Shown here: positions 31,436-59,406 of the stretch, one piece after another
Layout of the letters: each line of letters begins with the position of its first letter
Numbering within the stretch: position 1 is the stretch's first letter
From: Podarcis cretensis
Lineage: Eukaryota
DNA length: 64,000 nucleotides
NCBI GenBank assembly: GCA_951804945.1
Contig: OX638153.1
Coordinates: 84,754,001-84,818,000, forward strand
Reading direction: 5' to 3'
Notes under the pieces: model-generated
The model's input: only the letters and a program-made list of their open reading frames with translations
What the model was told of the DNA's origin: nothing
Databases searched by the model: none
Made by a program: the position numbers and the translations under genes

Positions 31436-31745
31436 ATGTGCTCCTCAAGTTCTTTTTAGCATCATCTTTTTTCATTACATACTGTCTACTGGCACTTTAT
31501 TTTTTGCTAGAGTTTTTGTTCCACCATCACTGCACTGCCACCATATTAATAGTGGGAAAGGAGAAGGAATAATAGGATTCAGAGATTAGCCCCCCCCCCC
31601 ACTTCTGCAAGCGAGCACCGAAATAATACTCTACAGCATGGAGTTATTCTGAATTTTTGTAGGACGAATAACTTGGAAAGAGACTAAGCTGTAAACATAA
31701 ACATATTTTTCCCCAAACACCCACACCTCCACACCCACAACTTAC

Positions 31746-33253
31746 CCAGTTTTTGCAAAACTTGCCCAGTACTTCAGAATAGACCTACTCAGAGTTTCCT
31801 CCGCTTTGGTGTAATTAGCTCTTCTCTCTAGAGGTAGTCCAAATACAAATTCTATTTCATAGCCATGTGGTACTCCCATCCACTCTGGCCAAGGTAGTTT
31901 TGAAGATCGGTGCTCAAAGAAGTATAAGAAAGCATTGTTCTGTGCCTCGACAAAATGTTTTACAAACTCCACGGTAGGACATATGAAATTGTAATCTCCA
32001 ACGATATCATCCATAGCATCACGGTAATTGAAAGGGATCTGCTCTTCCTCCCAGTCCGTATAGTGAAAAGCAATAGATTCCAGTCCCACTTCACTTGTTT
32101 CTGGGAAGGATAGTGCCAAGCCTGCCCGGAATTCTGCTTCATTGATAAGGCTGTTGTTATCTTTGCTGAAGCCAGGTGCTCCGTACACAAGGAAAGCCGT
32201 ACCTTCATCTTTGTTCACCCCCAACAAGATCTGTGTTTGTTTAAAATTCCCATTCTTCAACAAGGTTCCAGGAAGATCAGCAAGAAAATGGCCATCAACT
32301 ACTGGAGTGAAGTACAGCTCTAAAAGAGCCCTGTATGGTAAAACAGACACTTCATTGGCAAGTATATCCTGGGGATCTTTGCTCTGAAGACAAATAATGA
32401 TCTCTGTTTCGTTGCTACTCGTACAGTGGAGGAGTTTAGCTAGAGCTAGAGTTCTCCGTGTTGCTTCAGAGGGTAGAAGTGCACCCCAAGGGGCATTTCC
32501 AGCACCACTTTGCAGGATTGCCCTAGTGAAGAGAGGATGGCTTTGTGGAGAAAGGAGATGGTAGCTGACACCTCCTGCTCCAGCACTCTCTCCAAACAAT
32601 GTCACACTTTTAGGGTTGCCACCAAAAGCTGCTATGTTGTCTTGGACCCACTGAAGTGCCAGTCGTTGATCAAACAACCCTGCATTTCCTGGAGCATCTT
32701 CGTTCCCTGGCAAAGCCAAGAATCCCAATGCTCCTAACCTATAATTCATTGAAACAACAATGACTCTCTCAACACGGGCTAGAAATCTGCCATCATAGAC
32801 ATTCAATGAGGAGGTCCCAGTCTGGAAGCCTCCACCATAGATCCATACCATGACAGTTGCATTTTTAGGCTTGGGTGAAGGAACCCACACATTGAGGTAG
32901 AGGCAATCTTCACTGAGGTTTGTGTTGGGGTTCCACATCTCGGATCCTGAAAACCCAGGGAAAGTATTGTCTATGTTCTGATAGCAAGAGTTTGCATACT
33001 TGGTGGCATTCCAGACCCCTCCCCATTCTTCCCGAGGCTGCGGCTTTTTGAAGCGAAGTCGCCCAACAGGTGGAGCTCCATAAGGAATCCCAAGGAAGGC
33101 TGAAACTGTTCCACCAAGCACAGGCAAAGTCAACCCTTTGACTCTTCCACTCTTAGTAGCAACGACGGTGTCATCTTGAGGGACCACCTTCTTGACAAAC
33201 ATGTACAGCACAAGAAGCCACATGAGAGTGCATGCTCCATTAGGGTATATCAT
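31746..33253 (-). CDS. BCHE: Butyrylcholinesterase, coding part of exon 2 (25-aa signal peptide plus mature residues 1-478; partial CDS)
   Basis: The 503-aa ORF is colinear with vertebrate BChE: [10 protein letters not shown] oxyanion hole, FGESAG (Ser198 codon 32587-32585), NKDEGTAF (Glu325, 32206-32204), HGYEIE (His438, 31867-31865), W82 and D70. BChE-type residues Q119, L286, A328 and F398 are present rather than the AChE aromatic set. Acceptor tttcag|GAAACATG gives exon start 33258. Donor ACTGG|GTAAG after 31746 splits Gly478, as in the known BCHE exon 2/3 junction. Confidence 0.97.
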
Positions 33254-35671
33254 GTTTCCTGAAATGAAATGGGGTGGGTGGGTATGTTTTCAGTGCAGCA
33301 ATGCAAGAGGTGACTGCATTCAGAAAAAAAGAAATGTGCTATAGCCTTAAAGCATTAAAAAATCACAAAATAGTAGGCATACCCTGGGGAGACCAAGAAA
33401 TGAGCCTTACACAGTAGCTAACTTGAGTACCTAAGACCAAGCTCTCCTAGTGCTTTGAATTACAAATTTAGCCAAACAGGAGTGGAGAAAAATGAAAAGC
33501 ATTGTCCTCATCATAAGACCACAGGAAGTTGTTGTACACAGCAGAGTCAGGATGTTGGTCTGTCTAGCACAATCCTACCTAGAGATGGTGGTGGTGATTG
33601 AATTTGGGACCCTGTGCATGCAAGGTAGATGTTCTACTACAGCTATCCTCATCCTCCCTGAATGACCACATATCAGGGGTTCTGTCATAGTGGGTTTCCT
33701 GCATTGGTAGGGCATGTAACACTTGATATCCCTTCCAGCTTAATGAACCAACTATTTTCACTTATAGTCTGCTTCTCCCATTTCTAGTCAAATTCACCAG
33801 GAGTGCTTTCCCCAAGGGTGGCTAGTGCCCATTGAGACTGGTAAGGCAGACCAACACTAGTTGAAGCTTCAGACAGACAGGCAGAGCAAACTAATTCTAG
33901 TTTTGCCCACCCTGATGAGGTCTACAAGGACAATACAGAGACTATGGAAGAGGAAGGTTACATGGTCATCACTGCCTCCTGTGGGAATGAGTTCCATAGT
34001 TTAGCTGTGTGCTGTATGAGGAAGTACTTTCTTGTTTCTCCCCAACTTGATTCAGACAAAAGAATGCAGAGGGACCTACTGACTGAACCATTTTGTTACT
34101 TCACAGGATCTAAAAGAATTAGGTTGACACCATTTTGAGGCATTTCATGGAGAGCAAAATATCCTATCTTATGCCAAGTCATATTTTTACACCAAACTCT
34201 TTCCTGGAAACTTTGTGTGTGTTTATTCATCACGCCACTAACGACTGCGCTTTCTTTCATATCGAGTTTTCTTTCAGGAGTTATGTTTGAGATTCAGGCC
34301 TTGATATTGACCTTAGTAAAAAAAAAAAAAAAAACCTCCAAAATGATATTGCAGTAACTTGGGCGTTGTGAGTAATTTCTCCTTGAGGAGGGTGAAAAGA
34401 TATGGGGGAAAGGAAAGAATTCTGTGTCCTTATTACTGTCATTGTAAACAGTCTGTTCTAGGTTATTGAGTAGTACTTCTATCCTTAAAAGGAGCAGAGT
34501 TAATTTCTGTGCAAAATACAGCTGTGTGGCTCATTGAGGGCCATTTTGCTGGCTGTCTGCTTATAGTTGAAAGCTGAGAGTGGAAAATAGGAACATTTTT
34601 GCTTGAAGTGCTTCCTAAGTATGCGAGAGCATCAAAGGAACAGAAGGAGAGGGGGATTATCAGAGACAATATTTCACAGATTCAGTCGAATGTGAGAGCA
34701 AATAAAAAGCCGAATACTGAAGGAAAGGATTTAAAGTAATAGTAGACTTTATGTAAAGCCTCTTGGGGTGGTTCATAAAGAACTGTAGAGCATGATAAAG
34801 GAGCATTAATCTATCCTTAAACTTTGCTCACCTAAGATCTTACAGGAAACTGCACACCTGTGAACTTTGTGCTTGCCAGGTGTTTGGCGATGACACTGGG
34901 CTTGCATGCAGAATGCTTGCACAAGGTTTTACATGGAGATCCACAGCCCTGTGTGCATGATATTTTCATGAATATATGCATCAGTTGGCTGGGAAAGATG
35001 TTCATTCACTTCTTTGTTCCTCTAGGTGGGTCATGCTATTCCCTTTGCCTTCAGTGTTACTGAGAGTGTCCTGCTATGCCCATTGACTTCAACATGCCAT
35101 CACCACATTCCACCAAAAAAAGGCCCACAGAGCAGTTTACATATCAATGAAAATATGACCGTCTCTATTCTCAGGCTTACATTTGAAGATACCTGACACA
35201 AAAGGGAAATGGATTGGGGCAGAGAAGGAGATAAGAAAACTCAAGTGCCAGTTGTCATTTACAAGTCCTTCTAATGACACGAAACATGATTTAGAACACA
35301 TCCACGTGGTGATTTAGATAGATGGTGTGTTCACAGAAGTGACCAAAATCAAGATCTTCTTGGAGATGTTACGTTCAGTAATATGTTTGATTGTTGAATA
35401 TGTAAGTGTATGTCTAGAGATGATGGATAAAACAAACACCATTGGCTGCACTGCTGGCTAAGTGTTTAATGGTTATTGTATTCACGGTTGTTTTAAAACC
35501 AATAAAAATTATTTTTAAAAGACAAAAGTAGTGACATAGAAGTCAATGGGTACAGTATCACATACACACAGGAGCACAGAAGTCAATGGGCATGGCATGA
35601 TATACCCACAGGAACGTTTTGATCAGAGCACGGGTGGCCAGGCATGTGCTTGGTTAAAGGCACTTATTTTA

Positions 35672-35672
<1 letters not shown>

Positions 35673-35711
<39 letters not shown>

Positions 35712-35730
35712 ATAGATAAATAAATAAATA
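35673..35730. repeat. (TAAA)n microsatellite
   Basis: Read directly from sequence. Confidence 0.95.
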
Positions 35731-35893
35731 CACTGTCCCTTTCTACAACAGATTGGAGCTCATTCCCAAGTAAATGTGTTTAGCATCAAGGCAGAAAACA
35801 CAAATACTTTCCATTCCTAAGTGGGGGAAATAATGGTGAAATATATTATTTTGTTGTACTGCAAATGACTCAGAGGAGGAAGCAGGGGTAGGA

Positions 35894-35894
<1 letters not shown>

Positions 35895-35930
<36 letters not shown>
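35895..35930. repeat. (CA)n microsatellite
   Basis: Read directly from sequence. Confidence 0.95.
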
Positions 35931-35933
<3 letters not shown>

Positions 35934-36299
35934 GTAAAGTGGCTATGTTGGTGAAATTCTGTTTCTTGCCTTTCTGTTTACAAATGGGTACTTTTAAGAA
36001 ATTACAATGTGCATATGAGGGAGAGAAGTAGGTGGCTCTCAGCCTTTTCAACATAGTTGGCAAAAGACTGAGTGACTGATGGGGCTTTTTATGACTTGAG
36101 AAGAAAGCAAGCTGATTCCTAAGCGTATCAGATTTCAGCTTGCCTGCCTACACCCGACCAGCTTCTTCAGTGAGGCTGCAGTCCTAACCCTACTTGTTTG
36201 GGAGTAAGCTCCATGGAATTCAACAGGACTTCCTTTACTTCCAGAATGTTGAATTAACGTGGAAGAATCATCAAAAATCTATAAAGAATCTTGCCTGCC

Positions 36300-36364
<65 letters not shown>

Positions 36365-36365
36365 T
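36300..36365. repeat. (CT)n(GT)n compound microsatellite
   Basis: Read directly from sequence. Confidence 0.95.
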
Positions 36366-36833
36366 ATGCGTAGAGAGAGAGCCTGGGTTTCAGTTTAGGA
36401 GGGGGAGATAGGTGTAAAATGAACAAGATTACCCGGTTTAAAGGTTGGGCTTTGGTTTCAAACTGCAGAAGGTACAACAGGCAATTTGATTCAAGAATTG
36501 ATTTGCAAGTTAATTATCAACAGTACAAATACAAGTGAGCACTGTGGAGACTGTCTTCTGAGGAAGATAAGCAGATAAAAAAGTGAAGAATCAGAAAAGG
36601 AGGAAAAGAGATTGTGAGAGGTGGGTATGGAGAACTTTGCACTGTATCCAATGCACATTTACTCAAAAGTCAAACCTATCCAGTTCAATCCTATTTATTT
36701 CCTAGCAAAACATGCCTATGATTTGCAGGCTGTTTCACCTTGACTTCTTCCAGTCTTCCTGTGGCAAATAATATATAGCTGATTAAAAAAAGAAAGCAAC
36801 AATATATCAGGGCAACTCACCCCTTCACACATA

Positions 36834-37075
36834 CAGTGGTACCTCGGGTTACATATGCTTCAGGTTACATACGCTTCAGGTTACACACTCCGCTAGCCCA
36901 GAAATAGTGCTTCAGGTTAAGAACTTTGCTTCAGGATAAGAACAGAAATCAGGTTCCGGCGGCACAGCGGCAGCAGGAGGCCCCATTAGCTAAAGTGGTG
37001 CTTCAGGTTAAGAACAGTTTCAGGTTAAGTACGCACCTCCAGAACAAATTAAGTACTTAACCCAAGGTACCACTG
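36834..37075 (+). mobile_element. Tc1/mariner MITE (CAGTGGTACC family) in BCHE intron 1
   Basis: TA|CAGTGGTACCTCGGGTTA...TAACCCAAGGTACCACTG|TA. Confidence 0.9.
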
Positions 37076-37449
37076 TACTTCTTTTCACAAAGTGGACATG
37101 ATCCTGTTAAAACTAAGTAAAGCAGTGTTTTGTGATTGCACACATTGCACACACCTCAATACACATTTCAATGTCCCTGTGGGAATGCAAATGGATGGTG
37201 ATAATGGGCAATTAACAGCCTAACAGTTACGCAACTTCCAAATAGTTCTCTGAAGAATCGAAGGCAATGATTTCTGCAAATGGTGAGAACTGATCAAGCA
37301 GACAAGTTTTTATTAACAATTTTGCCATCAAATTGAATAGGCCACAGCAAATTGTAATTCTTTTTCCTTTTCCTTTTTGCATTAGTCAGTGATTGCAAAT
37401 CCCATGCCAACAAGGAAAAACCATTGAAGTCAATGGGTTTCCTCTCAAG

Positions 37450-37794
37450 TAGGCACAAAGAAGCAACACAATTCAGTTCAAATTCTGCTGAATTTGCAAT
37501 TCCTAAAACCACAGGTGTCATTCAAAATTCGCACTTCTCCGAATTTTGCAACACATTTCACCAAGCAAGCATTGGATACAAAAGGGTATATACTAGTGAA
37601 ATGGGCATAAAATGTGTGTGTCAATGAAAATAACATAAAAATGCATTATATTAGGGGAAATTGCTTGCAAACATGTATACAGCATGCAGAAAATGCTGAA
37701 GAGTTTTCATGATGTGGAAATGTGAAGAGCTGAGTTTAAGATTGGAAAAATAAGAAATTGAAAGAAATCAAAACTAAAAGATTTATCCATCCTT
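37450..37794 (+). mobile_element. Non-autonomous hAT-like element
   Basis: Same family as 24543-25348. Confidence 0.55.
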
Positions 37795-38699
37795 ATTCCC
37801 AAGTAAAGGCGAAGGAAGCTGCGTCCTAATGGTATTTTAGGACACAGTTAAATATACTTTAGTCCAATTAATTTCCACATGATGCAAGTACATAAAACAA
37901 TGTACTGGCTTGCAGCCAAGTGTCAGCTATTAAATATGCACACTGGAACCACATATAATGTTGTGCATGTCACAATTATCCCTATAACAGCTTGTGCTGA
38001 CTTATTTCTTCCTGCATGATGGAGCAAAGAACTCAAGAGCAGGTATAAAGTTGCCTTTCAAATATTTTCCAAAAGCCAACTCTCAACTAAAAGTTAAACT
38101 GCCATTGTTTGGTATGAAATATTTGATCCTGTGCTTAGGTTAACGTGAAACAGACTGAAGAAAATAAAACTCACTTTATTAATTCCAGAACAAAAGAAGT
38201 CAGAAGATTCTTTTAGGCTGTCATCCAAATGTAGATACATTGGTAGATGCATCTACTTTTCTTTTCTTTTTAAAGTTTTTTTCCATTAGTCTTTATCCAT
38301 GAAAGTTCAACAGAACAGACTTCGGTATTCTCATTCAGTGAAGCAATACAATTTATTTCAATGATTGTTTCCTCTCCTTGCAAATCTTTAGCCAACCAAG
38401 AAATCTATACACAAGGCTGTGTAATCTCTATTTAAATTCAGCAGATAGTTGAATTAATAAATGATTTTTTTTAGTTCAGTTTAATTTACTTAGCCCAGAA
38501 TCCATTGAATAATACTATGGTTCGATACACATGCCTGCTTATTTGTTCCATCAGTTCCATTTGCAGAATAGACTTTGTATTCCCAGCAGAGCAACAAATG
38601 GACAGAGCATAACGTTTTAGTAGACTGCAATTCCCATACAAATCGAGCTTAACTATAACTTATGCTGATAGAGATCAACGTAAATAGAGAATCTCTTAC

Positions 38700-38845
38700 C
38701 CCGTTTCGTATTACAGAGATGCCAAAGTATGTGTGTTTTTTTAAGATCCAAGATCTTTAATACTTCAGCAAAAGGCAGTGTTCAGCTGCTTCTTTAATGC
38801 TTGCAAATTGGACTGTGCTGACATTATAATGAACTGTTTAAGAGA
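38700..38845 (-). other. BCHE: BCHE exon 1 (5' UTR exon); 5' end approximate
   Basis: Minus strand reads ...aatgtcagcacagtccaatttgcaag...gcagctg...gaagtatta...cggg|GTAAGA, with the GT donor at 38699-38698. This resembles the human BCHE exon 1 as I recall it (aatgtcagtgcagtccaatttacagg...gcagctg...gaagtatta...cgg). The 5.4-kb distance to exon 2 is similar to mammalian intron 1. Confidence 0.8.
38765..38824 (-). promoter_or_regulatory. Upstream ORF in BCHE exon 1, MSAQSNLQALKKQLNTAFC*
   Basis: ATG at 38824-38822 (A at -3) and TGA at 38767-38765. After splicing the ATG lies 130 nt before the main ATG, so it is out of frame. Confidence 0.7.
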
Positions 38846-39000
38846 AAGCTCGCGAGACTTGGCAACAGCAATTTGATCTGAAAGCAGGCGGTCTTAATAT
38901 CTGACATCTGCTCAAAGGAGAATGCCATCATTGTTGAAAGGCTTTGCAGTTAAGTCAAGTAGGGAATCAGAGCATTCCAATTTTCAGGATTTCATCAGGG
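38846..39000 (-). promoter_or_regulatory. Putative BCHE core promoter
   Basis: Repeat-free sequence directly upstream of exon 1, with no clear TATA box and a CTCGCGAG palindrome at 38849-38856. Confidence 0.45.
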
Positions 39001-41761: not shown

Positions 41762-44160
41762 TCTTCTTCTTTAAATAAATGAATTTAAATTTTCAGATTT
41801 ACAGTCATCAAGCAAACAAGTAAAACGATTTCCATAAGTTCCCTTGGACTTTCCCCCTCCCTTTTGTGGGTCCTTACCTTAACTTTTTCTCCTGCATCTT
41901 CTCTGTTAGTTCAGTTCCATTAAATCTCCGAAACCATAGTCCAATGTTTAACTACAAGCGTCATTCCAATCCTACTAATAATTTTAATTGTTTAGAATGA
42001 TTTTTTAGGTAAATTATATATTTTCCCCATTCCTTATTGAAGTTTTGTTTTTCTTTTTTTTTTTATAATAAATTTTTATTAATTTCCAATTTTTTAACAA
42101 ACACAACAGAAAAAACATAAAAACAAACACATAAATTCATAATTTCTTAACCTTATTTCCATAAGCCTCTTTTCTTGGACTTCCCCATACCTTCCCCTTT
42201 TTGCATCCTTTTATTTTTAACAATTATTCAACAACCCTTTTAGCCAATTTAAATATAAATTCATTCTCCCTTTCAATTTTACCCTAAATCAAATAAAATT
42301 TACCGCTGTAATTCTACGTCTTCCTCTCCCTTAGCATTTTAGCACTCCTCAATTTTGTAGTAACTCTTAAGATATATTTTAAACTTCTTCCAGTCTTCTT
42401 CCACAGTCTCTTTCTCTTGGTCGCGGATTCTGCCGGTCATTTCTGCCAGTCCCATAAAGTCGATCACTTTCGCCTGCCATTCCTCCAGCGTGGGTAGCTC
42501 TTGAGTCTTCCAATACTTTGCCAAAAGAATCCTTGCTGCCGTTGTAGCGTACAAAAAGAAGTTTTTATCCTTCCTCGGCACCAGCTGGCCGACCATACCC
42601 AAGAGAAATGCCTCTGGTTTCTTATGAAACGTGCATTTAAGTACTTTCTTAATCTCATTGTAAATCATTTCCCAGAAGGCCTTAATCTTTGGGCAGGTAC
42701 ACCAAAGGTGGAAGAAGGTACCTTCAGTCTCATTACATTTCCAACATTTGTTATTGGGCAAATGATAAATCTTCGCTAGCTTGACTGGAGTCATGTACCA
42801 CCTGTAAATCATTTTCATAATGTTTTCTCGTAAGGCATTACATGCCGTGAATTTAATACCTGTGGTCCATAACTGCTCCCAGTCAGCAAACATAATGTCA
42901 TGACCTATGTCCTGTGCCCATCTAATCATAGCTGACTTCACTGTCTCATCTATTGTATTCCACTTCAACAGCAAGTTATACATTCTTGATAAATTCTTAG
43001 TATTGGGTTCTAACAGTTCTGTTTCTAATTTCGATTTCTCCACCTGGAAACCAATTTTCCTGTCTTGTTTAAAGGCCTCCATTATTTGAAAATAATGGAG
43101 CCAATCCCGTACCTTGGACTTTATTTTCTCAAAACTTTGTAGTTTAAATTCACCACCTTCTTGTTCTAAAATTTCAGAATATTTTGGCCAGTTGGTTCTC
43201 ATATTGAGTTTCTTTACCTCCTTAGCCTCCATTGGTGAAAGCCACCTGGGGGTTTTATTTTCCAGTAGATCTTTATATCGAATCCAAACATTGTATAGTG
43301 CTTTCCTAACAATATGATTTTTAAAGCCCTTATACACTTTAACCTTGTCATACCAAATATATGCATGCCAACCGAAATTATTATCAAATCCTTCCAAATC
43401 TAGAATGTCCGCATTTTCAAGAAGTAGCCAGTCTTTTAACCAGCAGAAAGCTGCCGATTCATAGTACAATCTTAAGTCCGGCAGGGCAAACCCCCCTCTT
43501 TCTTTAGAATCAGTAAGTATCTTAAACTTAATTCTGGGCTTTTTGCCCTGCCAGACAAATTTAGATATGTCTTTCTGCCACTTCTTGAAACAGTCCAATT
43601 TATCAACAATTTGTAATGTCTGAAACAAAAATAACATTCTAGGCAATACATTCATTTTGATTACTGCAATCCGACCTAACAAGGAAAGCTTCAGGTTCGA
43701 CCATATTTCTAAATCTTTCTTTATCTCTGTCCAGCACTTATCATAATTATCCTTAAATAAGTTTACATTCTTAGATGTCATGTTAATCCCCAGGTATTTT
43801 ACACTCTTTGCCACCGTTAACCCAGTTTCCTCTTGGAATCTCTCTTTCAACATTTGTTAGGTTTTTTTCCAATACCTTAGTTTTTTGTTTGTTCAACTTA
43901 AATCCTGCGACCTGACCAAATACTTGAATTATTTCTAAAACTCTTTTAGTACTAGTGTCTGGATCTTGCAAGGTCAATACTAAGTCATCTGCAAAGGCCT
44001 TCAATTTGTAATGTCTGGCTCCGACCTGAATCCCTTTCACCAGCTGGTCCCCCCCCTTATTGAAGTTTTGGTCATCCTGATTCCTAATTCTTCCATTCAG
44101 TTTTGCCATTTCTGCATGTTACCATCAGTTTAATCTGCCATTCTTCCCTGGTAGGGACTG
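41762..44160 (-). mobile_element. Older L1 3' end, split into 44055-44160 and 41762-42047 by a younger L1
   Basis: Rejoined across the TSD it reads ...EMAKLNGRIRNQDDQNFNK|EWGKYIIYLKNHSKQLKLLVGLE*, homologous to the ORF2 C-terminus of the young L1. Confidence 0.75.
42048..44054 (-). mobile_element. Young 5'-truncated L1 LINE (partial ORF2, 3' UTR, polyA)
   Basis: RT motif AFADDL, KYLGI, and zinc knuckle CWKC...HLWCTC; 504-aa open stretch 42339-43853 with one frameshift near 43845. AATAAA plus A-tail at 42048-42081; 16-bp TSD ccttattgaagttttg (42032-42047 / 44055-44070). Confidence 0.93.
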
Positions 44161-57498: not shown

Positions 57499-59406
57499 TT
57501 GATGGATGCATCTTATTGAAACTTGTTGATTTTCTGTGGTATATATTATACATTTAGTATGCTTGAAGAAGGACTGGGGCAATCCTTTGGAGGGCATCAT
57601 GGAATACTGAAGGCCTCATTCTATGTAGGTCTATCTACAGTACAGTAAGGGAAGTTTGTTGATGTAGGTCTTCCTGTCAAGAGGTTTCCACCACTATGTG
57701 GTGGAACTACTCAGTGGTTCTCCGCTAGCAAGGAGGAGCATGGGGCAAGGAGGTGTGTCAGTGGCCTAGAGTGACCAGTCTTTTGGGTATCCACAGGATC
57801 CTAAATGCCTTCGTTTCCATGACACCCACCCCGCTTGCCCCACAAAAAGAGAGAGCCAGAAACTGCCTCAATCCGAGAGGTGGAATTTTTATTTTCCTCC
57901 CATTGGAGGATGTGGGAGCGAACAAAAGAAGGTCATTATAACCATTTGCAGGGCTTAGGAAGTATGTCACAAACTCCACACACACACACATACACACAAC
58001 TCATGCGTGTGCGCCATTAAGGTTAAGGTTTAGGAGATGTACAAATGGAACAACCACTGATATAGAAGTGCGCAGGGCACTGTTGTTCATGTGGAGCTCT
58101 CTGTACATATCAGAGCCCTGCTTATTATGGGATCTCAGCAGCAACAAAAGTACAGGTATGCCATAACGGCTGCTGTGAATTTACACTCTCTCTTGGAGGG
58201 CCTGTTAAAATATCTCACATCTTTTAATTACAGGACTGGAAGTTTTCCCAGACTAAAGAATGCATCTGGACACTGAGAAGTTTTAAAAAGAACAATTAAA
58301 ATGAAGTTAGTAACTGGATTATTTAAAAAAGATTGCATAAGAAATGTGGTCACTTTTCCCCACCACACTTTCTGAAAATATAAGGGACAGCTCTTGAATT
58401 GTGCAGTCATAAAAAAACATGTCTATGTTCTGATCCAGGCATTATCCAACAGAAGCCTATATCCAAATACCACCAACCTGTTAGGGAACTTATCACCTTT
58501 GCAGCAGTTGGTCATTTTTTTTCCTTAAAAATGTCAATTTCATTTGAATATTTGCCATGAAATTTGGATGGCATACATTGCCTGATAGGTTTGAACTGAG
58601 ATGGATGTTGTATTATTAATGTAAGCTGATGTTTTACCTTTTTCTCACTTTTTTAATGTTAAACTTGCTTTTAAAAAAAAATAATAACACTCTTTCCTGA
58701 GAAGTGCAATTTCACACATCCATCTGAATTGCAAATGTTGCTGTCCTTTGCATCTTCTCACCTCCTACTCCTGACTAAATGCCACAACTCTGTTTTTACA
58801 GTATTAATTCATTAAGATGTAGAACAAATGCCAGCATCTCCCACTGTTCTTCTGAGCTGGCTTTGGTTCTGTTAAGCTGATCCATGCCAGCCCTGAAAAC
58901 AGAGCAGACTGGAAGGGGGTAATGTCAGCCTTCTTTGTTCCACCTTGCTCAAAGTAATCAAGCATAAAACAGGGCAAGCAAACAGGTGAGTCAAATGAGG
59001 ACTTAATTGCTGACCAGAGAGATAAACTGACTTATCTGCAACTTTAAATAAAACTTCTCTGTTTACTAAATCATCATCAACAACAACAACATCATCAGCA
59101 CCATCCACCAGTGGGTGGTGATTTAAGTAGCTGTACTGCAGATCATTTTGATTCCTGGATATGAAGCAGGTGTAAGAATGTTGTAAATGTTTCCAGTTGC
59201 ACCCCAAAGAAGACAGGTGGAGAAAATGAGGACTGGATGCAGAAGTTCATACTCTCTCATTTAGAAAGTGGGTTCCCTACCAACTCTTCTGAAGATCACA
59301 GTACATCTCACAATGGGGTTTAATCTACAAAGAGATGTATTTCCCAGTAGGGACCATGATGTGACTTTCAGGTGGTTTCAAGTATTAACCTGCATCTATG
59401 TCTCCA

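Follow-up and report, generated by a model that had tools for sequence, protein, structure and literature searches.

Nine codons shared by lizard and placental BCHE upstream of the main start probably reflect core-promoter DNA rather than a regulatory peptide

Exon 1 of the BCHE gene in the lizard Podarcis cretensis carries an ATG upstream of the main start codon, and the codons that follow it resemble those that open the N-terminal extension of placental BChE. The question raised by this locus is what has been conserved. The initial annotation of this DNA proposed that the conserved unit across amniotes is the upstream ATG together with a short peptide or RNA element acting in translational control, and offered overlapping promoter or initiator elements as an alternative. 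We analysed a window of 64,000 nt (assembly GCA_951804945.1, contig OX638153.1, positions 84,754,001 to 84,818,000), and all coordinates below are positions within it.

The gene lies on the minus strand and is BCHE: the open reading frame (ORF) that starts at the main ATG at 33253 in exon 2 (31742..33258) matches COesterase, and its product is 97% identical to P. raffonei cholinesterase over residues 1-110. Later BCHE exons lie just beyond the window edge, and the region of the upstream ATG is single-copy in the genome. Exon 1 as shown transcribed by spliced contigs occupies 38700..38820 (-), and intron 1, of the GT-AG type, occupies 33259..38699 (-) and is seen directly as a contig joint that skips 5441 nt. 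The joint between the donor after 38700 and the acceptor at 33258 was found in spliced contigs from two organisms, and in all four further contigs the unaligned ends match exon 2, which backs the junction. A candidate distal first exon is located about 20 kb upstream of exon 1 at 58478..58515 (-), where 11/12 residues of the N-terminus of P0101 are matched and a GT donor is present. This isoform, annotated in Podarcis lilfordi only, joins the distal exon to an acceptor internal to exon 1 at 38754 (AG present), beyond the stop of the upstream ORF (uORF); its ATG is in frame in P. lilfordi and in phase 2 here, with a stop that overlaps the main ATG. The distal exon was seen in none of those four further contigs, and the isoform may be minor or a prediction.

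The upstream ATG itself is at 38822..38824 (-), with A at -3 and T at +4, and it opens a closed ORF of 19 codons, MSAQSNLQALKKQLNTAFC, at 38765..38824 (-), where the TGA ends at 38765. This much agrees with the initial annotation, as does the likeness of 8/9 residues to the placental extension, which in a six-frame scan of the window scored 37 against 25 for the next best and was the best of ~128,000 positions. The mammalian start MSVQSNLQA, as given in the initial annotation, is borne out by placental records and by Table 2 of PMC6435664, which gives a human upstream ATG at -123, the residues MSVQSNL and a 643-aa product. The A at -3 is not common to the human gene, for which the same paper gives t at -3. 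That the uORF is out of frame with the main ORF is true of this genome, in which splicing places the upstream ATG 130 nt ahead of the main one (phase 1), but not as a general rule, as three related lacertids have phase 0 and one has phase 2. The distance from the ATG to the end of the exon is 125, 124 or 123 nt among lacertids, giving phase 1, 0 or 2, and these differences of 1-2 nt fall in an A-run/CA tract at 38728..38742 (-), with a 2-nt gap at 38728, a 1-nt gap at 38736 and a substitution at 38729. The TGA is unchanged in all five contigs that cover it, out of six lacertid contigs; among lacertids the stop is fixed and the phase of the ATG to the main ORF is variable. The stop lies 70 nt ahead of the main ATG, and lizard BCHE has the layout of a uORF, a start codon closed in frame before the main ORF begins. 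A separate 35-codon ORF with three ATGs (38931-38824, minus strand), whose stop overlaps the upstream ATG, lies upstream of all contig ends and bears a partial likeness to the N-terminal part of the placental record P0208. Two further readings of the bases around the ATG were set aside: a TATAA that overlaps it is absent from P0208 and was not used, and a DR4-like nuclear-receptor reading of codons 1-6 has 60 equally good sites in the window.

Homology between lizard and placentals extends well beyond the nine codons. A gap-free block at 38798..38878 (-) takes in 54 nt upstream of the ATG as well as codons 1-9, and its placental counterpart is represented by three protein records, P0208, P0229 and P0339. 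P0208 is a spurious 80-residue placental ORF that reads through the promoter; its residues 21-47 match the block with 67% identity (E 9e-13), and the 19 codons before its Met align to the lizard sequence without gaps, 10 of them identical. Residues 31-57 of P0339, which came from a profile search of 1.84 billion proteins that gave four matches, align to the block with E 9e-6; this record is unchanged at the Met and at all four residues over the motif, but it differs at four of residues 3-9 and shifts frame afterwards. P0337 adds one more record with the same start, and P0338, a 190-aa tandem concatemer of BCHE-promoter-like translation that is probably an artefact or part of a synthetic library, was left out. 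The upstream block (38878) scores 40 and the ATG block 37, each being the best of ~128,000 positions, and the two are collinear. P0229, from the raccoon dog, matches the same DNA in another frame than P0208. The two records are compatible at one of 13 offsets, at which they jointly fix 19 bases, 18 of them the lizard's, both CpGs included, on the assumption that both species share the sequence. Protein record searches for a sauropsid promoter translation found none, and all seven matches from a scan of metagenomes for vertebrate exon 1 DNA were chance matches that lacked flanking homology.

Within the block, TCTCGCGAG at 38848..38857 (-) agrees with the published consensus of the CGCG element, or BANP-type motif, at 9/10 bases and contains two CpGs. 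It occurs once in the window against an expectation of 0.03, and its bases are identical in two placental read-through ORFs that are read in two frames. It is adjoined by TGCCAA at 38859..38864 (-), which we take to be an NFI-type half-site and which is identical in the two-frame deduction. The motif region has a GC content of 0.39 and a CpG observed/expected ratio of 0.49-0.67, compared with 0.29 for the window, and is no CpG island; we therefore treat the motif as one that would work like a CGCG element and not as a member of a CpG island. CGCG elements are described as lying 20-70 nt upstream of starts, with the main reporter start at 28 nt (PMC6192621), BANP is identified as their binder in published abstracts, and a 2026 preprint reports that BANP positions starts (bioRxiv 10.64898/2026.05.04.722487). 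The BCHE motif shares with these promoters the 9/10 consensus bases around an intact CGCG core (PMC6192621), a start predicted to fall on a pyrimidine-purine step at a distance of 29 nt, conservation across vertebrate lineages and the absence of a strong TATA box. It differs in being single, CpG-poor and of a tissue type, whereas the known cases are housekeeping CpG islands, and its 3' flank, AGC, is not among the variants named in the portion of PMC6192621 available to us. By likeness, the BCHE motif would belong to the CGCG/BANP class.

The position of the transcription start was approached from two sides. Six spliced contigs (five studies, four related organisms), presumed to be RNA, end at 38820, 38813, 38813, 38797, 38795 and 38732, and none of the six contains the ATG, the furthest reaching 38820. 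In four of the six, the contig pieces stop at their own termini with no loose ends at the 5' side. A contig end does not mark the start itself and is usually some way short of the cap, which makes these ends a weak hint, and lizard starts may therefore lie some bases upstream of 38820, the ATG included; five of the six ends fall 28-53 nt from the CGCG motif. Raw RNA reads from X20 and X22 contained almost no BCHE signal, with one X20 read over exon 1. The sequence GTCAG at 38818..38822 (-) is initiator-like and places the predicted +1 on A 38819, inside the Ser2 codon and 29 nt from the edge of the CGCG motif. CA steps number six in the 27 nt of the nine-codon block versus eight in the surrounding 122 nt.

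For the human gene, 5' ends were computed from published tables, using a BCHE 5' end of 165555211 in hg19 (PMC8699623, in a table whose own source is unstated), the gene span in GRCh38 for the offset (PMC12708154) and the position of rs1126680, c.-32, at 165837337 (PMC11727802; PMC6435664). Assuming that the hg19 and GRCh38 spans share their 3' base, the shorter annotated 5' end falls at c.-118 and the longest at c.-157. The former lies 5 nt past the first base of the ATG (-123) and is homologous to lizard 38819, and the longest annotation includes the upstream ATG. Annotated 5' ends of this sort generally follow cap data. Work on the same promoter in human and rabbit by Jbilo in 1994 reportedly placed a start at -157, which agrees with the computed c.-157. 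Indirect evidence from both lizard and human thus points to a start downstream of 38824, an outcome that the initial annotation had itself named as counting against a conserved unit built on the upstream ATG, and it is doubtful that 38824 lies inside the usual mRNA.

Because the match sits inside a longer conserved stretch and most starts are likely to lie past the ATG, the conserved bases are probably promoter DNA and not a regulatory peptide. The alternative offered in the initial annotation is the better-supported reading, and a conserved unit of ATG plus peptide or RNA element fits poorly with homology that reaches at least 54 nt upstream, with variation at 7/8 positions of the peptide and with the lack of any RNA structure or family (below). 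We consider it probable that the nine-codon match is core-promoter DNA, that the main start falls just after the ATG and that the ATG is present only on longer, minor transcripts; the sequence, the splicing, the extent of the homology, the frame changes, the rarity of the motif and the contig ends are observed, and the start position, the identity of the factor and the transcript shares are what we infer here. The CGCG-type motif (38857-38848), with the flanking TGCCAA, would recruit a chromatin-opening factor, BANP by likeness of the motif, and the recruited factor would make transcription begin at clustered sites 20-70 nt beyond the motif. The main start is predicted on A 38819, five nucleotides downstream of where the ATG begins, and the CA-rich block that happens to read Met-Ser-x-Gln-Ser-Asn-Leu-Gln-Ala would be the start zone and the first transcribed bases. 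With a start past the ATG, most mRNAs would therefore lack it and be translated from 33253. Minor longer transcripts would carry the ATG near the cap, where in lacertids it would open the 19-codon uORF; in those placentals whose exon 1 is by chance open and in frame, the longer transcripts would give the 41-residue N-extension.

The ATG may have a role on the minor longer transcripts, given its retention in every one of the three placental records that were not selected for it. One tentative extension of the promoter reading, which we regard as possible though not probable, is that the choice of start acts as a switch: transcripts starting after the ATG would yield the normal secreted enzyme, and those starting a few bases earlier would include the ATG and divert ribosomes. 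That this switch is built on a lone CGCG/BANP-type promoter outside CpG islands, kept since the amniote ancestor, is an equally tentative suggestion, and so is the proposal that the diverted ribosomes would translate the uORF in lizards and an uncleaved N-BChE in placentals. Such a switch combines promoter DNA with an ATG that dampens translation, and those two readings are not exclusive. The human papers invoke a 5' UTR hairpin to explain the choice of start codon, whereas the coordinates used here suggest that the mRNA contains the ATG or lacks it depending on which start site is used; if the switch were real, the level of N-BChE would be set by start choice and not by the 5' UTR hairpin put forward for the -116A variant in human.

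Taken by itself, selection on the ATG as a translational damper present on a sizeable share of transcripts is the main rival, though unlikely. Ribosomes starting there would be diverted, in lizards into the 19-codon uORF and in placentals into a long signal peptide that is poorly processed, and the sequence of the peptide would be irrelevant. The ATG is retained in the lizard and in all three placental records that were not selected for it (P0208 and P0339 directly, P0229 by closest codon), the lizard and P0208, whose Met follows a Val codon, both have a purine at -3, and the lacertid stop is invariant. In human variant homozygotes, N-extended peptides were detected by mass spectrometry, and variant carriers are described as having an uncleaved signal and lower activity (PMC6435664). 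Upstream AUGs are in general conserved above background, commonly with neutral peptides (PMC7889888), and BCHE resembles the canonical regulatory uORFs of that paper in its conserved ATG, short ORF and unconstrained peptide; it differs in that its ATG apparently falls ahead of the main cap site or no more than a few bases away from it. The supplements of two papers on uORFs and 5' UTRs (PMC11317171, PMC7889888), as far as they were available, did not list BCHE. The longest human annotation takes in the ATG, but the shorter one begins past it, as do all six contigs; the human context is weak, and the nearest initiator-like site upstream in the lizard would leave a leader of 6 nt. As the three bases of the ATG occupy positions -5 to -3 relative to the predicted start, its retention can be explained without translation.

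A nascent or free regulatory peptide of nine residues as the conserved unit is very unlikely. Eight of nine residues are equal between the lizard and most placentals, and the extension has been reported as conserved in mammals (PMC6843418), but positions 3-9 all vary among the 19 placental records with the ATG block, six of which depart from the majority sequence, with four changed positions in the tarsier, and P0339 has four residues changed as well. Variation affects 7/8 columns of the peptide versus 32/100 in the mature enzyme (Fisher p 0.003), compared with 27/27 in the signal peptide. Two synonymous codon differences from the lizard in the canid record, obtained by closest-codon reading from another frame, favour a peptide, but they are accompanied by two non-synonymous ones, which is no coding signature. 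Past codon 9 the lizard-placental match continues in the second and then the third frame, this second block being the best window match for two of three queries and outside the top three for the third query and for P0208, and the non-coding DNA upstream is about equally conserved. In lacertid organism D, exon 1 has no substitutions in 113 nt, a span that extends past the stop, and exon 2 differs at 8/98 four-fold sites, among the 15 listed of its 16 exon 2 differences (Fisher p 0.002 versus exon 1). The peptide is not supported as the conserved unit.

The claim that the long extension is lineage-specific held in the records seen, in which it was placental-only. It occurred in 23 of 125 placental records (22 by filter and P0190 by eye) and in none of 124 others (0/93 sauropsid, 0/14 marsupial and 0/17 amphibian or lungfish), where the counts are of records listed, not species, in a partial sample of each large cluster, with a visible N-terminus required and 12 truncated records left out. 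Because curated records open at the standard ATG irrespective of the sequence before it, absence is weak evidence for any single species. A word search for the extension returned five candidates, none of the five named as non-placental, and one short ORF, P0208. Likewise, the initial annotation was correct that this lizard cannot make the long N-BChE: the TGA stands at codon 20 in lacertids, and neither this genome nor any of the five covering contigs has an uninterrupted frame linking the upstream ATG to the main one. Lizard and human share a homologous ATG, the first nine codons and exon 1 (PMC6435664, PMC6843418), and differ in that the human ATG at -123 gives a 41-residue extension and the lacertid frame is closed.

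These records bear on the idea that exon 1 coded an N-extension in the amniote ancestor and that lizards retain its frameshifted remains, to which we give very little credence. Lizard exon 1 does match the placental extension lengthwise in three frames, the pattern expected of a coding exon that has decayed, and three lacertid organisms have phase 0. The extension is missing, however, from every sauropsid, marsupial, amphibian and lungfish record counted above, and some placentals likewise have it disrupted or skipped, with exon 1 out of frame in P0229 (raccoon dog) and P0283 (vampire bat) and other records starting at the second ATG (e.g., P0191, P0193, P0288). Lacertid exon 1 is moreover under present-day constraint, and the homology reaches into untranslated upstream DNA. 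A conserved 5' UTR RNA structure is the least likely source of the match, despite nucleotide constraint on both sides of the exon 1 stop and the hairpin proposed in PMC6435664, as the fold has a z-score of -0.27 with 75/200 shuffles equally good, Rfam returned no matches at E 1 and no contig extends as far upstream as the best-conserved block.

N-BChE and its spread among mammals are already published, and we did not find the motif or the start-site argument in print; the BCHE literature that we searched on promoter, uORF and BANP, largely non-subscription, contained nothing naming either. Read as promoter DNA, the BCHE block is real and ancient but an ordinary kind of promoter element, and since that kind is already known, the gain is mainly for cholinesterase and promoter specialists. 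For them, the "conserved N-terminal extension" cited in favour of a functional N-BChE protein becomes explicable by promoter DNA, and a specific mutable motif and a start base are named for an enzyme that metabolises drugs and about whose regulation, according to PMC6435664, little is known.

Three further features of the locus were recorded. Within the window, the N-terminal residues of the crow isoform P0117 are best matched inside intron 1, at 38550-38488 (-), about 150-210 nt beyond the exon 1 donor. The match scores 37 against 29 for the next, with a tblastn E of 0.04, and hints at conservation between lizard and bird and a possible alternative donor in intron 1. Two overlapping ORFs of 504 and 108 aa at 42339-44109 (-) resemble, by eye, the end of a frameshifted LINE ORF2, and the 504-aa ORF matched no Pfam families. 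Intron 1 also contains a SINE-like repeat at 36826-37081, which has very high read depth and recurs at other places in the window.
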